A DNA stretch of 64,000 nt from Patescibacteria group bacterium. GTDB lineage: Bacteria > Patescibacteriota > Patescibacteriia > PEXW01. Positions 1,993 through 9,380 of the stretch are shown one piece after another. The notes under the pieces are model-generated. The model searched no databases and was not told the origin of the DNA. It was given only the letters and a program-made list of their open reading frames with translations. Location of the stretch: contig JBAYJA010000002.1 of the NCBI GenBank assembly GCA_041665345.1, forward strand, positions 18,649-82,648. Direction: 5' to 3'. The translations under genes were made by a program, and so were the position numbers. How positions within the stretch are numbered: position 1 is the stretch's first letter; each line of letters starts with the position of its first letter.

Positions 1993-3069
1993 ATGCTTAC
2001 TTCCGAGCAACAAGCTATTACCGCAATCCTTACCCAAGCGACGCAATACCGAGCGTCGGATGTGCATTTGGTTCCTGGAAGCCAACCCATGCTGCGGGTG
2101 GATGGGAAGCTAACACCCTTGCCAGATGCCAGCGTGCTCACGGCAGACCAACTGCGTGGGTACATTGAGGCAACCCTCACCCCGGCGCAGCTGGCCTTGC
2201 TGGAAAAGGAGCGAGATGTTCGCGTTGCCATTTCCCTGGAAGGGAAGCTGCGTTTTCGGCTGGTTGTGGCCTACCAGAAAGGTTCCTTGGCTTTGGAGCT
2301 TCGGTACATTCCGGACGTGCTCCCTGGGGTGAAAGAGCTTGGCCTGCCGCCCATTGTGGAGCAGATTCCAAGTTTTACCCACGGCTTGGTCCTGCTCTCC
2401 GGTCCGTATGGTTCTGGGCGGACAACTGTTCTGGCGAGCATACTGCAGACCATCAACCTCACCCGCGCTTGCCGCATTGTGACCCTGGAACGGCCAATTG
2501 AGTTTCTCCTGGCTGGTGAGAAGAGTGTCATTGAGCAGCGAGAAATTGGTACAGACGTACCCAGCGTTGCGCACGGCTTAGATCTCTTAGACCGGGAGGA
2601 TGCAGACGTGGTGGCGATTTCGGAATTGGAAAAGCCAGAAGACCTGCAGGCCACGCTCCGCTCCGCGCATGCCGGGCGGCTTATCATTGCCACTCTTCCC
2701 GCAGATTCGGCGGTGCAGACACTGGAAGCCATGGTGGCGGCTTTTTCCTTGGATGAGCAGACCTGGGCCCGGAAAAGGCTGTCTGAGGCTCTCCAGGCCG
2801 TCATAAACCTGCGTTTGGTGCCCCGGGTGGGCGGTGGACGCATCCTGGTTTCTGAAGTGCTGGCGCCGTCCACCCCCATTCGCGCGGGGATTCGGGATGG
2901 GCAGTTCCTTCAGCTGGCAAACACCCTGCAAACCAGCCGTGAGGAGGGGAGCGTGTCGCTCGACCGATCCCTAGCCGAACTGGTACGCTTAAATGAGATC
3001 AAGCCAGATGATGCCGAAGCCGTTGCCTTGGATCCCACCAATTTCAAATTCATGATTAGCCGTTCCTAA
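1993..3069 (+). CDS. pilT: PilT-like T4P retraction ATPase paralog with degenerate catalytic motifs
   Basis: N-terminus aligns with PilT (ASDVHL..MLRVDG). Walker A reads GPYGSGRTT (Lys->Arg) and the His-box position reads TLPADSA (His->Pro). ATG 1993 preferred over TTG 1951. Confidence 0.75.
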   Translation: MLTSEQQAITAILTQATQYRASDVHLVPGSQPMLRVDGKLTPLPDASVLTADQLRGYIEATLTPAQLALLEKERDVRVAISLEGKLRFRLVVAYQKGSLALELRYIPDVLPGVKELGLPPIVEQIPSFTHGLVLLSGPYGSGRTTVLASILQTINLTRACRIVTLERPIEFLLAGEKSVIEQREIGTDVPSVAHGLDLLDREDADVVAISELEKPEDLQATLRSAHAGRLIIATLPADSAVQTLEAMVAAFSLDEQTWARKRLSEALQAVINLRLVPRVGGGRILVSEVLAPSTPIRAGIRDGQFLQLANTLQTSREEGSVSLDRSLAELVRLNEIKPDDAEAVALDPTNFKFMISRS

Positions 3070-3077
3070 ACCCTGCT

Positions 3078-4286
3078 ATGGCCATTTACGACTACCGAGC
3101 GAAGAATGATACCGGGCAAACCGTGGTTGGAGCTGTGGTGGCGCCAACCGACGCGGTTGCGTACGATACCCTACGGGAAAAATCCCTGACGATTATTTCG
3201 CTGAAAGAGCGGAAGAAGAGCGCGCAACTTTTTGGCACCGACATTTTTAACCGGGTGAGCGTGAAGGAGCAGGTCATCTTTGCCCGGCAGCTCTCGGTGA
3301 TGATTTCCGCCAACGTGCCCATTGTGCGTGCCTTGCGTATTTTGGTACGGCAAACCAAGAATGTGCACTTCAAAATGATCCTCTCCGACATTCTGGATGA
3401 AGTGGATGGTGGCGCAAAATTTTCGGCTGCCCTGGCACGGTACCCACAGGTGTTCAATACGTTCTTCGTCTCCATGATCCGCTCAGGGGAAACCACGGGT
3501 AAGCTGGACGAAACCTTGGTGTACTTGGCTGACCAGAAGGAAAAAGATTACGGCGTCATTAGCCGGGTACGAGGTGCCTTCATCTACCCAGCAGTCATCC
3601 TCTTTGCCGTTCTGGCTGTAGGTATTGTCATGGTGGTGTTTGTGCTGCCCAAGCTCATGGAAATTTTCTTGCAGAGCGAAACAGAATTACCTTTTACCAC
3701 CAAGGCGCTTATCGCGGTCAGCGACTTTGTGCGGTTCCGATGGTACATTGTGATTCTGCTCATCATTGGCATTATTGTGGCCTTCGTTGCCTGGCGCCGG
3801 ACACCTGGTGGCCGCCGGGCAATTGACCTTATCAAACTAAAAGTCCCAGTGGCGGGCAGTATTTTTTCCATGATTTATCTGAGCCGCATGTCCCGGGCGT
3901 TGTCCACACTGTTGGCGTCCGGTGTGCCCATTTCCCAAGCCTTAGCCATCACCTCCGAAGTAGTTGGTAACCAAACCTACCAGCGCATTCTCCAAGCCAC
4001 AATCCGGGATGTAGAAGATGGGAATTCCATCACCACCCAGTTTATGAAGAGCAAGAGCGTGCCCTTGATGCTCAGCCAGATGATGAGCGTGGGTGAGCAG
4101 TCTGGGAAAATGGACTTGGTCTTGTTCAAGGTCGCTCAGTTCTATGAGAACGAGCTGGACGGCATGGTCCGCAACCTGGTGGCGCTCATTGAACCAATTA
4201 TCCTGCTCATCATGGGTGTGGGTGTGGGCTTCCTGGTGTCGTCCATTCTCATGCCAATTTACAACGTGAGCAATGCGATACAGTAA
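3078..4286 (+). CDS. pilC: Type IV pilus inner-membrane platform protein PilC/GspF
   Basis: 402 aa with the two-repeat GspF architecture and three TM segments. Sits after the pilus ATPases. Confidence 0.9.
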   Translation: MAIYDYRAKNDTGQTVVGAVVAPTDAVAYDTLREKSLTIISLKERKKSAQLFGTDIFNRVSVKEQVIFARQLSVMISANVPIVRALRILVRQTKNVHFKMILSDILDEVDGGAKFSAALARYPQVFNTFFVSMIRSGETTGKLDETLVYLADQKEKDYGVISRVRGAFIYPAVILFAVLAVGIVMVVFVLPKLMEIFLQSETELPFTTKALIAVSDFVRFRWYIVILLIIGIIVAFVAWRRTPGGRRAIDLIKLKVPVAGSIFSMIYLSRMSRALSTLLASGVPISQALAITSEVVGNQTYQRILQATIRDVEDGNSITTQFMKSKSVPLMLSQMMSVGEQSGKMDLVLFKVAQFYENELDGMVRNLVALIEPIILLIMGVGVGFLVSSILMPIYNVSNAIQ

Positions 4287-4695: not shown

Positions 4696-5301
4696 ATGAC
4701 ACAACGAAAAGGTTTTACCCTCATTGAACTTTTGGTGGTCATTGCCATCATTGGTATCCTCTCAGCGGTCGGTTTGATCGCTTTGAACGGTGCTCGTGAA
4801 AAGGCACGCGACAGCCAACGTAAGAGCGATTTGGGACAGCTCCGCACGGGTTTGGCGCTGTACTATGACACGAATAATGATTACCCATCGTCAGATGCGG
4901 GAACTGCGAATGGCCACACAACAGATAATGCCGAAGGTACAAATCCAACGCTCCCAACAGCCGGAACCGGGTCTATTGCTACAACGACGGTAAAATGGGT
5001 TCGCGCAGACTCTGGTCCTATTGCTGGGTTCTCAGCAGCAGGAGACTTGCTGTTCGATGCGTTAGTAGCAGGACAAAAGTATATTTCTCGTTTGCCCGCA
5101 GCACCAAATGGTGGAGCGAATAACTCCATGAAGCAGTATTGGTACGCTTCATGTACCACTGCTGGCGCAATAGGCAATACTGCCTACGCGATCGCAACGG
5201 AATTGGAACGTCCAGCTGATAGTACAAAACAGATGTGGATAGTAAACTCCACAAATGGTACAGCAGCTGAAACGACGCCCGCAGCAACCTACTGCTCGTA
5301 G
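4696..5301 (+). CDS. Type IV pilin (prepilin; class III signal MTQRKG|FTLIELLVV)
   Basis: GGAGGT Shine-Dalgarno 8 nt upstream of the ATG. Short basic leader, G/FTLIE cleavage motif with Glu+5 and a hydrophobic alpha1. C-terminal Cys pair (C...C) and terminal Ser. Confidence 0.85.
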
Positions 5302-5416
5302 TCTTGATGTTAGTGAAACCAAAGAAGGACCCAGCGGTCCTTTTTTGGCATACTCATCCATAGAGTAAAAAGTTTTTTTAATAGCAATACGAGTGCCTTT
5401 GTATTATACTAGTAGC

Positions 5417-5977
5417 ATGAAAATGATACCCGACCGTAAAGGCTTCACTTTAGTTGAACTCCTTGTGGTTATTGCCATCATTGGAATCCTTTCAGCGGTC
5501 GGACTTATAGCTCTTAACGGAACACGTGAGAAAGCAAGGGATGTTACTCGAAAAAGCGATTTGAAGCAGCTAACAACAGGGTTAGCCTTATACTACGATT
5601 CAAATAATAGTACATACCCTGATTCTACTGCTGCGGGTGTTGCTACTTGGACAGGTTTGGGAGGCGCACAGCTTGGTGAGCGAGCAGATGCAACAGGGTG
5701 TGGCCTTGGATGTGTGGTTTACGATGCTTTGGTTGGATCAAGCAAACATATTGCGCGTTTACCAAATGCACAGACGGTGGGACCAACAGACCTCTCAAAA
5801 CAGTTTTGGTACATGTCTTGTGTTGGCAAAGGAGATTCAAGTCAGGTGAGTGCAGAAGCTTATGCGTTAGTAACTGAATTGGAGCGTCCTGCAGATCCTA
5901 CAAAATCCTGGTGGATATACCGTTCAACTGAGTCAGCAGCGGAAGAAAGTGCACCAACTTCCACGCCTTGCGACTAA
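5417..5977 (+). CDS. Type IV pilin paralog (prepilin; KG|FTLVELLVV)
   Basis: N-terminal ~60 aa nearly identical to the upstream pilin. Conserved ELERPADxTK and a C-terminal Cys pair. Confidence 0.85.
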   Translation: MKMIPDRKGFTLVELLVVIAIIGILSAVGLIALNGTREKARDVTRKSDLKQLTTGLALYYDSNNSTYPDSTAAGVATWTGLGGAQLGERADATGCGLGCVVYDALVGSSKHIARLPNAQTVGPTDLSKQFWYMSCVGKGDSSQVSAEAYALVTELERPADPTKSWWIYRSTESAAEESAPTSTPCD

Positions 5978-5980
5978 GCT

Positions 5981-7555
5981 ATGATGACGTACCTCCGCTA
6001 CTGGTTGCCGGTGGGTTTTCTGCTAATCGCAGTAGCTGCAGGTTGGTTCCTGCCAAGTTTTACCAGTAAATGGCCTTTGGTGGTCATGGGGTTTTTGCTG
6101 CTTCCTCTCGCATGGTCGTTTCATTATTTGGTAAAAATTAAGTTTTCCTGGCGAGAACCGGCGGTGTACTTGTGGCTGAGTGTGGGTTTGGGGCTAATCA
6201 GCAGTGCTCTAGCTGCAAATCCATATTTGGCACTGCGGGGTTGGTTGGTGTTCTTGGCTGGGGTGGTTGTGTACTTTTTGGTTCGTTCACTAACCCCTGA
6301 GCATAGGCAACCCTTGATGATTGGTATCGTCATTGTCGGTGTGGTGATTGTTGGTTGGTCATATCTCGCCACAAAAACGTCATTGTCTATTCCTTGGGTT
6401 CCTGTAGTTAGCAAAGACCCACTACTCCTGACTGCTGCAGTGTTGCTCCCCTTGGCCTGTGCAATTATTCTGCTCATCAGGGCTCAGGGAAGGGGATTGA
6501 GGGTATTGTTTGCTGCTATAGCCATATTCCTCGTTAGCCCGTGGGTACTCCCAAGCACGTGGCAGGCATGGCATAGTGCCTGGGCAGCGCTCACCCAGCA
6601 AATGAATGTACTGCAACAGATATTTTCTGCACACCCGTTGGTGGGCGTTGGTTCAGGGAACTACACTTTTTACTTTCCCCGGTTTGCGTCGAATGCCTCG
6701 GTATATGCCGAACATGCACCAAGTTCACTAGTAGACGCCATTGTAGGTTTTGGCATACTCCCTATTGCCGCTTTCCTCGTTTTTCTCTTTTTCAGTATCC
6801 AACCACTGGTGGCACAAAAAGCCAAAATGCCTTGGGTATACGTGGCGTGCCTTGGTTTGCTTGGAGCCGTAGCCTGTGTCGTCTTTGTGGATCACCCGGC
6901 TGTGGCACTCAGTTGGCCAATCCTGTTTGGACTCATGAGTTCACCGTTCATAACCCAAGAGGGCTCCAGTCAAGAGACGCGACGAATCTTTCGGCGGTCA
7001 CTTCTTGTTGGTGGTTGGGTGGTAGCACTCCTGAGTCTGGCTATGGGTTTTGGTATTAATCGCTTTGGGCGAGCAGAGCGGGCAGCACAGTCCGGAGACA
7101 CCAAGAGCGCTGCATCGCTCTATGCCTCTGCCCTGCATTTTGATGCTGACCCAATGCAACGTCGGGCATATGCGGAGTCGCTTTGGCTGAATGGACACCA
7201 AAAGAAGGATCTTGCTGAGGCGGAGCATCAAGCCCGTTTAGCCTACCAGTGGAATAGGGAAGACACTTTTGCATACCAAGTCGCTGCTCGAATTGCTTTT
7301 TCAGAGGGCAATAATGCCGAGGCGGAACGGTTATACAAAGAGGTGCTACAACGAGATAGATTTTTTTCCTTAGACGCAGCTATTTCTTTGGCTGATGTGT
7401 ATAAGAAGCAGGGGAAGAAAGTTGAGGAACAACAACTTGTCGAACAAACCCTGGCGCCATTTACTGTAGAGGTAGTGGAAAAAGGCTTTGCTTTTTCAAC
7501 TATCTCCCAGCAACTTGAGCAAATCAAGAAACGTCTTGTAGATCTAAAAAAGTAG
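5981..7555 (+). CDS. O-antigen ligase (Wzy_C) family polytopic membrane protein with C-terminal TPR domain
   Basis: About 10 TM helices. Wzy_C-like loop HPLVGVGSGNY...AEHAPSSLVDAIVGFGIL. C-terminal ~180 aa shows helical TPR-like repeats. Confidence 0.65.
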   Translation: MMTYLRYWLPVGFLLIAVAAGWFLPSFTSKWPLVVMGFLLLPLAWSFHYLVKIKFSWREPAVYLWLSVGLGLISSALAANPYLALRGWLVFLAGVVVYFLVRSLTPEHRQPLMIGIVIVGVVIVGWSYLATKTSLSIPWVPVVSKDPLLLTAAVLLPLACAIILLIRAQGRGLRVLFAAIAIFLVSPWVLPSTWQAWHSAWAALTQQMNVLQQIFSAHPLVGVGSGNYTFYFPRFASNASVYAEHAPSSLVDAIVGFGILPIAAFLVFLFFSIQPLVAQKAKMPWVYVACLGLLGAVACVVFVDHPAVALSWPILFGLMSSPFITQEGSSQETRRIFRRSLLVGGWVVALLSLAMGFGINRFGRAERAAQSGDTKSAASLYASALHFDADPMQRRAYAESLWLNGHQKKDLAEAEHQARLAYQWNREDTFAYQVAARIAFSEGNNAEAERLYKEVLQRDRFFSLDAAISLADVYKKQGKKVEEQQLVEQTLAPFTVEVVEKGFAFSTISQQLEQIKKRLVDLKK

Positions 7556-8205: not shown

Positions 8206-8583
8206 ATGTCCACGAAGCGCACATCACAAGCACGAGCTCTGCGGAAGAACCAGACGGAAACTGAGGCCATACTCTGGCAACATCTGCGCGCACATCGCTT
8301 CTCGGGTGTGAAGTTTCGCCGGCAGTATCCCATTGGTCCGTACATTGCAGATTTTTGTGCGCCAAGCTGTAGGTTGATTGTTGAGGTGGATGGGAGTGGA
8401 CATGAGGTGCCGGAGCAGCGCATGCATGATGTTCGGCGAGATACTTGGTTGTCCGAACAAGGGTGGAAAGTATTGCGTTTTTGGAACAATGAAGTTGGAA
8501 GTGAACTTGAAGCGGTGTTAGAGAAAATATTTGAAAGTATCCCCCAGATACAGAACATGGATGCAGAAGGTAAAAATCCCTAA
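8206..8583 (+). CDS. DUF559 endonuclease-domain protein (Vsr-like fold)
   Basis: QARALRKNQTETEAILWQHLR...GWKVLRFWNNEV matches the DUF559 signature. ATG 8206 lies just 3' of the GC-rich hairpin block. Confidence 0.7.
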   Translation: MSTKRTSQARALRKNQTETEAILWQHLRAHRFSGVKFRRQYPIGPYIADFCAPSCRLIVEVDGSGHEVPEQRMHDVRRDTWLSEQGWKVLRFWNNEVGSELEAVLEKIFESIPQIQNMDAEGKNP

Positions 8584-8591
8584 CGAATAAA

Positions 8592-9380
8592 ATGAAAATA
8601 CTCATCCTCACCACCCTCTTCTTCCTCGGCGCCTGCATAGGCAGTTTTTTGAATGTTGTCATTTACCGTCTACCACGCCGGAAGAGTTTTTTGAAAATCA
8701 AAGACCGGTCGTACTGTCCCCGTTGTCGGAGAGGTTTGGAGTGGTACGATCTCATTCCAGTTGTAAGCTACCTGGTGCTCCGGGGGAAGTGCAGGAAGTG
8801 CGGCAAAAAAATTAGTCCCCAGTACATTTTGGTTGAGCTAAGCATGGCTATCCTTGTACCGTTGCTGTGGTGGATGCATGGGACCAGCGTGTACGCACTG
8901 ATTGGTGTTGTGGGTGCCGTGGGATTACTCATCATTGCCTGGATTGATGGTCAACGGAAGGTAGTGCCAGATGCCGTGAGTTTGCCAACTCTGGGAGCGC
9001 TCGTCATCTTGCAGGTGGTGTATGCGTTTGTGGGGACTGATGCGCCCTGGCAGCACTTGTGGCACATTGCTTTAGCTTCCGTCCTTGGTGGGGGTTGGTT
9101 TGCCGCCCAATGGTTCCTTTCCAAGGGGCGATGGGTGGGGTCTGGGGATATCCGTATAGGGGCAATTCTTGGTGCGTATCTTGGCTTGTCCCTGGGTGGC
9201 TTAGCACTCTTTGGTTCGTACATTTTTGGGAGTATCTGGGCGGCGGTGCTGCTTAGCCGTGGCAAGGCGAAATTTGGCACGCAGTTGCCCTTTGGCGTCT
9301 TCCTGGGGCTTGCCGGCATCTTGACGTTCCTCTTTGGGCATGTCGTGGTAGAATGGTACCAGGAGCTCATTGGCTTCTAG
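8592..9380 (+). CDS. pilD: Prepilin peptidase (A24 family) PilD
   Basis: N-terminal CxxC...CxxC (CPRCRRG...CRKCGKK), multiple TM helices and a GSGDIRIG active-site region. Confidence 0.9.
   Translation: MKILILTTLFFLGACIGSFLNVVIYRLPRRKSFLKIKDRSYCPRCRRGLEWYDLIPVVSYLVLRGKCRKCGKKISPQYILVELSMAILVPLLWWMHGTSVYALIGVVGAVGLLIIAWIDGQRKVVPDAVSLPTLGALVILQVVYAFVGTDAPWQHLWHIALASVLGGGWFAAQWFLSKGRWVGSGDIRIGAILGAYLGLSLGGLALFGSYIFGSIWAAVLLSRGKAKFGTQLPFGVFLGLAGILTFLFGHVVVEWYQELIGF

Follow-up and report, generated by a model that had tools for sequence, protein, structure and literature searches.

In PilT, the Walker A motif binds phosphates and an Asp-box Glu coordinates Mg2+ (PMC5424180, PMC6858323), while two arginine fingers, which are universally conserved (PMC5424180), sense nucleotide across subunits (PMC5424180, PMC6858323). 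The Glu that follows Walker B activates water, and a His-box His holds the gamma-phosphate (PMC5424180, PMC6858323). Both residues are needed in vivo, as E204A and H229A abolish twitching (PMC6858323). PilT carrying K136A or E204A still supports retraction in the presence of PilU (PMC6821130). PilT with a mutated Walker A motif continues to assemble into foci that depend on PilC, and it links PilU to the machine (10.1101/2025.10.30.685630). In PilU itself, every catalytic motif is preserved, and its C-terminus makes the contact with PilT. Retraction without a dedicated working retraction ATPase is represented by the V. cholerae competence pili that lack PilT and by the Tad ATPase CpaF, systems that have either no PilT-like protein or one bifunctional ATPase. 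Saccharibacterial PilT has been reported with conserved Walker A and B boxes, and our full-text literature search returned no described degenerate, inactive or pseudo-ATPase natural PilT, in CPR or elsewhere.

Here, we describe a PilT of a different kind in a Patescibacteria group bacterium. The window, that is, the whole stretch of 64,000 nucleotides analysed, is part of a 1,075,605-bp ENA contig and contains a type IV pilus locus. Within it, positions 1993-3069 (plus strand) encode a 358-aa PilT orthologue with degenerate catalytic motifs, referred to as PilT*. In two-domain fold, length and position between pilB and pilC, it resembles canonical PilT of P. aeruginosa, Aquifex and G. metallireducens (PilT4). 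It differs from them in its catalytic motifs and in its score against the family profile.

Catalytic motifs and predicted fold

The best phmmer match to PilT* among all PDB chains was Aquifex PilT (2ewv, E=3.6e-65), aligned without gaps across the ATPase core. A preliminary description made from the sequence had proposed that the Walker A Lys and the His-box His are substituted, and the alignment bears this out. GPYGSGRTT (aa 137-145 of the ORF translation) aligns to GPTGSGKST, which places R143 on the Walker A Lys; within TLPADSA (aa 234-240), P236 aligns to the His-box His of TLHTNTA. The spacing of R143, E211 and P236 equals that of K136, E204 and H229 in P. aeruginosa and V. cholerae PilT, with an offset of +7.

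All motifs lie on the plus strand. In Walker A (2401-2427), Lys has become Arg (codon CGG) and Thr has become Tyr (Y139), with the glycines and the Thr kept. The Asp box, VTLERPIEF (2479-2505), aligned to ITIEDPIEY of 2ewv, keeps E166 and E170 and has R167 for the Asp. The atypical Walker B region, DADVVAISELEK (2599-2634), aligned to DPDVIFVGEMRD, keeps E211, and S210, E213 and K214 stand for G, R and D of GEMRD, which becomes SELEK. In the His box, AGRLIIATLPADSA (2671-2712), aligned to TGHLVFGTLHTNTA, both His are replaced, the first by R229 and the second by P236. As in canonical PilT, the QRE and GGG elements and the arginine fingers are present, the latter as R87-F88-R89 (2251-2259; aligned by hand). 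PIRAGIRDG (2875-2901), the counterpart of the PilT AIRNLIRE motif, is kept in part, and the PilT-type IR(D/E)G motif is present in the alignment. Four of these changes go beyond those listed in the preliminary description, namely Y139, R167, the replacement of G, R and D in GEMRD, and R229. PilT* thus departs from canonical PilT at five catalytic or near-catalytic positions whose invariance there is 98-100%. This strengthens the earlier suggestion of a pseudo-ATPase, for which loss of activity is predicted. The neighbouring PilB, as had been stated, retains both motifs, as GPTGSGKSTT and TLHTND.

The altered motifs belong to a correctly read gene. Nucleotide conservation with three relatives sets in exactly at 1993, and the homologues are 357-358 aa long, so the ATG at 1993 is the true start. 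An identical protein was found in three independent assemblies (ENA, JGI, Logan), which rules out a sequencing or assembly error as the source of the motifs.

PilT* belongs to Pfam T2SSE (6.8e-21). It scores 276.7 bits against TIGR01420, the PilT/PilU family, which is under the curated NCBIfam cut-off of 319.1 but still makes TIGR01420 its top-scoring NCBIfam family by a wide margin. An AlphaFold2 model resting on a 70-sequence alignment reached a mean pLDDT of 93 and a pTM of 0.89. In a Foldseek comparison, it matched ATP-bound G. metallireducens PilT4 (6ojx) with a TM-score of 0.90 and an rmsd of 2.5 A over 357 columns, and PilU, DotB and PilB structures ranked under the PilT structures. The superposition on PilT that had been suggested as a check therefore yields a predicted PilT fold, with an N-terminal PAS-like domain and a RecA-like ATPase core, and PilT* is a full-length PilT-fold protein. 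Although PilT* is also a PilT-family member of similar size to PilU, and matches the PilU structure 9n32 (E=5.4e-40), the match to PilT 2ewv is stronger. As PilU keeps the canonical catalytic motifs that are absent here, and PilT* is nearer PilT and occupies the PilT slot, a PilU identity is ruled out.

Organization of the pilus locus

The locus runs from a large protein through pilM, a pilN-like gene, two small genes, pilB, a REC-only response regulator and pilT* to pilC. Two pilins, a 524-aa membrane protein, a pilin-like gene, a DUF559 gene, pilD and minor pilins follow. The genes with positions in this paragraph are all on the plus strand. pilB (1-1308; ORF 10-1308) is cut at the window start and has all motifs canonical; in the source contig, PilB has 587 aa with MshEN and T2SSE domains. 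Between pilB and pilT* lies the REC-only regulator (1328-1747; Pfam Response_reg, 2.1e-21), and downstream are the pilC platform protein gene (3078-4286; Pfam T2SSF, 2.4e-55), two pilin genes with N-methylation motifs (4696-5977, comprising 4696-5301 and 5399-5977, from gene calls in the source contig) and the prepilin peptidase gene pilD (8592-9380; Pfam A24_N_bact and Peptidase_A24). In summary, the order pilM-N-O-pilB-REC-pilT*-pilC-pilins-pilD is found here and in relatives. It also holds in a complete Nomurabacteria genome with a PilT* of just 48% identity, and the synteny is kept between lineages whose PilT* share just 35-48% identity.

A survey in which one genome per species was scanned, covering at least 80 loci, showed that the Patescibacterial pilB-(REC)-pilT-pilC slot holds either a canonical PilT, with GPxGxGKST, TIEDPIEY, GEMRD and TGHL..TLHTN, or a degenerate one (17 loci among the matches listed). 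Because the slot is otherwise filled by canonical PilT, PilT* is a positional orthologue rather than an additional paralogue. The pilB-pilT-pilC order, which had been regarded as an unusual place for such a gene, is the normal Patescibacterial and Firmicute arrangement. PilB was fully canonical in all 17 of the PilT* loci among the matches listed and serves as an internal control.

The REC gene is syntenic in 15 of these 17 loci. Since it is also found beside many canonical CPR PilTs, it has no diagnostic value, and the idea that it is specific to degenerate PilT was rejected. The acidic pocket of the regulator is intact in the window and in other loci of the survey (L004, L008-L013, L029, L033, L049-L052 and others). 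Its N-terminal tail is rich in Lys and Pro, and in many Patescibacteria the gene separates pilB from pilT. No cognate kinase was apparent in the neighbourhood of the REC gene.

Several further features of the locus were recorded. Between the REC gene and pilT*, a 245-bp spacer contains four exact TACGAAT heptamers and one TACGAAA variant at 1751-1791, and the corresponding spacer of a relative (L008, PilT* 93% identical) is about 100 bp long and free of TACGAAT repeats. A structured RNA or regulatory element in the 245-bp spacer is unsupported, since its RNA fold is not significant (z = -0.56) and has no Rfam match, only the repeats being present. An ARAGORN tRNA-Ala(GGC) call at 3395-3473, within the pilC coding sequence, lacks Rfam support and is probably a false positive. 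The polytopic 524-aa membrane protein (5981-7555), encoded among the pilin genes, has a helical-repeat C-terminus and no Pfam match; a 514-aa gene holds the same position in another assembly (L002). At 8206-8583, between the pilin-like gene and pilD, a DUF559/MTES_1575 endonuclease-like gene is found. Other assemblies of the same organism have it too, but the Nomurabacteria locus L004 does not, so that it is probably a mobile insertion. Seven contigs in the survey (L008, L010, L013, L016, L043, L046, L065) are titled 'uncultured Gammaproteobacteria bacterium' and are Patescibacterial by gene content; they appear to be mislabelled MAGs.

Conservation and selection across the PilT* clade

The altered motifs extend well beyond one genome. 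The best 120 database homologues are all Patescibacterial where named, and about 110 of them carry the same altered motifs. In a neighbour-joining tree of 209 PilT sequences, a clean split separates 132 degenerate sequences from 77 canonical ones; the canonical tips closest to the degenerate clade are CPR PilTs. PilT* is consequently not a one-off sequence but a member of a large, apparently monophyletic clade under selection, and identical substitutions in about 130 homologues cannot be ascribed to chance. None of the homologues has a broken or shortened ORF. The clade signature consists of GP[FY]GSGR[TS]T, TIE[KRQ]PIE and [SA]G[RK]L without the His.

Position by position (numbering of the window protein; 77 canonical sequences), the replacements are distinctive. 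At the Walker A Lys, position 143, canonical PilT has K in 100%, and the PilT* clade has R in 86% and K in 12%. The Asp-box Asp (167), D in 100% of canonical sequences, is K in 31%, R in 28% and Q in 18% of the clade (77% together). At the GEMRD element, the canonical G210, E211 and R213 are each 100% conserved; in the clade, position 210 is S in 66%, the catalytic E211 is kept in 68%, and position 213 is E, D or S. The first His-box His (229; H in 98% of canonical sequences) has become R in 71% and K in 20% (R/K 91%), and the second (236; H in 100%) has become N, T, E, P or A. His is absent from both positions in all 130 of the 130 sequences classed as degenerate.

Other residues are shared by the two groups. 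G137, G142, E166, P168, E170, Q182-R183-E184, D188 and R87 are 97-100% kept in canonical PilT and PilT*, and G137, G142, E166, E170 and R87 reach 99-100% within the PilT* clade. D203, G281/G282 and E288 are largely kept (87-100%), and the position of R89 is R in 54% and K in 43% (R/K 97%). Newly conserved in the clade are F/Y139 (96%), S141 (96%) and G280 (97%). A clade-wide exchange was also observed at aa 167 and 213 (2491-2493 and 2629-2631), where Lys, Arg or Gln takes the place of the Asp-box Asp, and Glu or Asp that of the GEMRD Arg; judged from sequence, this pair could form a charge-swapped salt bridge.

A profile search over 1.84 billion representatives placed these substitutions in a wider frame. 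The best 150 matches, which were inspected, included 60 single-domain members without the His box, with a Walker A Arg in 34 and a Lys in 24. Given that 24 of the 60 clade members, as 50%-identity representatives, keep the Walker A Lys, what defines the clade is that the His box and GEMRD are lost, the Lys-to-Arg replacement being frequent but not universal.

Two related architectures were noted. A separate orphan subclade of PilT* in Patescibacteria keeps the Walker A Lys, has no His box and is encoded at a distance from pilB and pilC (L017:8001-10139; also L014 and L016). Its gene lies immediately upstream of a pilM homologue, the order being Der-Pth-PilT*-PilM-Mfd-DprA-TopA. The subclade has about 40 members among the matches listed, including Kerfeldbacteria-type contigs of 0.7-1.3 Mb. 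The representative library also contains tandem PilT-PilT fusions of 700-1024 aa (P0121-P0128, P0156, P0165, P0181, P0186). P0128 and P0165 each have a degenerate N-terminal half, whose Walker A reads GSGR, and a C-terminal half that is canonical in P0128 and less degenerate in P0165, so that a degenerate domain is covalently joined to one that is better conserved.

Compared with the relative whose PilT* is 93% identical, the dN/dS of PilT* was 0.039 (Nei-Gojobori, dS about 1), against 0.009 for pilB, 0.015 for pilC and 0.022 for the REC gene. PilT* was less conserved than its own PilB in every one of 105 locus pairs, the mean difference being 17 points, whereas canonical PilT, usually conserved at least as well as PilB, was the better conserved of the two in 72% of 496 pairs (loci among the matches listed in both cases). 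At 50-60% PilB identity, mean identity was 38.7% for PilT* and 55.8% for canonical PilT. PilT* is clearly maintained, but under relaxed constraint, and the combination of a low dN/dS with faster evolution than PilB fits a lost catalytic constraint and a retained structural or binding role. Essential invariant residues have been lost under purifying selection and with clade-wide conservation, as is characteristic of pseudoenzymes. A decaying pseudogene or functionless relic, as the loss of invariant catalytic residues and the faster evolution relative to its neighbours might suggest, is effectively refuted by the dN/dS of 0.039, the full-length ORF in every homologue, the clade's own conserved motifs and confident fold, and the synteny kept across lineages at 35-48% PilT* identity, and it can be set aside as extremely improbable.

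Proposed role of PilT* and its implications

The elements of PilT* predicted to handle nucleotide and Mg2+ are kept, namely the P-loop glycines, the Ser/Thr, both Asp-box Glu residues and the arginine fingers, whereas those predicted to serve the gamma-phosphate and hydrolysis are lost or variable (the Walker A Lys, both His, and the Arg and Asp of GEMRD). From this contrast we infer a ring that would bind nucleotide and hydrolyse it poorly or not at all; the catalytic Glu, present in just 68% of members, cannot be required for a function common to the whole clade. With moderate confidence, we propose that PilT* is a nucleotide-binding, hydrolysis-deficient PilT that acts non-catalytically at the PilC platform in competition with PilB. 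It would form a PilT-type ring, bind nucleotide with very slow or no turnover, and dock on PilC, where it would compete with the canonical PilB for the site. Its presence there would bring extension to a halt and allow, or gate, pilus retraction that is unpowered and independent of a motor, possibly under the control of the adjacent REC protein. In a more specific and distinctly speculative form, which we consider unlikely, the retraction motor of much of the Patescibacteria would have become, as PilT*, a nucleotide-sensing, non-hydrolysing switch that sets direction or dwell time at PilC, perhaps itself set by the REC protein, with pili that retract without a motor or are driven both ways by PilB. 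On this view, the newly conserved aromatic and basic pocket residues F/Y139, R143, R/K229 and K/R167 could even bind a ligand other than ATP.

This proposal has precedents among the known systems. Like the engineered ATPase-dead PilT of V. cholerae and A. baylyi (K136A, E204A), PilT* has lost catalytic residues, and those alleles still engage PilC and contribute to pilus dynamics. However, they are laboratory alleles that depend on PilU, whereas PilT* is an ancient natural form that extends through a whole clade, and no PilU was seen in its vicinity. A genome with PilT* only would need to retract its pili in the manner of the motor-independent or single-motor systems, with the difference that here a PilT-derived protein is kept under selection. 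Mixed PilT/PilU-type hexamers, to which the preliminary description had likened a regulatory or structural role, are not supported, because PilT and PilU make separate homohexamers (PMC6821130).

Some of the evidence counts against the hydrolysis-deficient model, in particular the kept E211, the charge-conserving Arg143 and the Walker A Lys in 24 of 60 representatives. The gains at F/Y139, S141, R/K229 and G280 look like remodelling of a pocket rather than plain decay, and the remodelled pocket could be an altered but working active site. PilT* would then be an active retraction ATPase with a rebuilt site, in which Arg143 replaces the Lys, and R/K229 and K/R167 handle the gamma-phosphate. The replacements are indeed specific and conserved (R143 86%, R/K229 91%, K/R/Q167 77%, F/Y139 96%), the window protein keeps E211, both Asp-box Glu residues and the arginine fingers, its dN/dS is low, and it fills the sole PilT slot of the locus. 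Nevertheless, this explanation is doubtful. Engineered Lys-to-Arg changes in P-loop NTPases generally leave binding intact and cripple hydrolysis. Furthermore, the catalytic Glu is missing from a third of the clade, position 236 is unconserved (N/T/E/P/A), and the conservation deficit of about 17 points relative to PilB argues for relaxed catalytic constraint. In addition, PilT function in vivo requires the His-box His as well as the catalytic Glu (PMC6858323).

A natural equivalent of PilT K136A with PilU appears improbable; in it, PilT* would serve as the adaptor through which a catalytically competent ATPase of the PilT or PilU type, encoded at another place in the genome, docks. An ATPase-lacking PilT that bridges PilU to PilC and supports retraction provides a model for it (PMC6821130; 10.1101/2025.10.30.685630), and the separate orphan subclade with its Walker A Lys, as well as the tandem fusions with one degenerate half known from elsewhere, are compatible with such a partnership. 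The search for a partner speaks against it. By tblastn, PilB was the only relative of PilT* in the 64-kb window, no second PilT-family gene was found in the 8-kb upstream flank, and the roughly 72 kb thus covered of a 1.08-Mb genome held neither PilU nor a second PilT. The flanks of the 17 PilT* loci listed, out to 8 kb, likewise contained no second PilT-family gene, and the in-locus and orphan Lys-type forms shared no contig among the matches listed, although this last point is weak evidence.

Type IV pili are thought to be central to host attachment and DNA uptake in CPR bacteria. The PilT* lineage includes Nomurabacteria, Kerfeldbacteria, Komeilibacteria, Buchananbacteria and Falkowbacteria-type genomes. 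In genome papers, the gene is routinely annotated as "PilT (retraction ATPase)", and retractile pili are deduced from its presence (for example PMC11809585, on a recent Patescibacterium genome). If a lineage-wide PilT cannot hydrolyse ATP, such inferences need revisiting, and the simple sequence signature separates the two PilT types in annotation pipelines. The pili of PilT*-bearing CPR bacteria probably use a non-motor PilT, and the clade would constitute a natural experiment on an ATPase-independent role of PilT that has so far been seen only in engineered Walker mutants.
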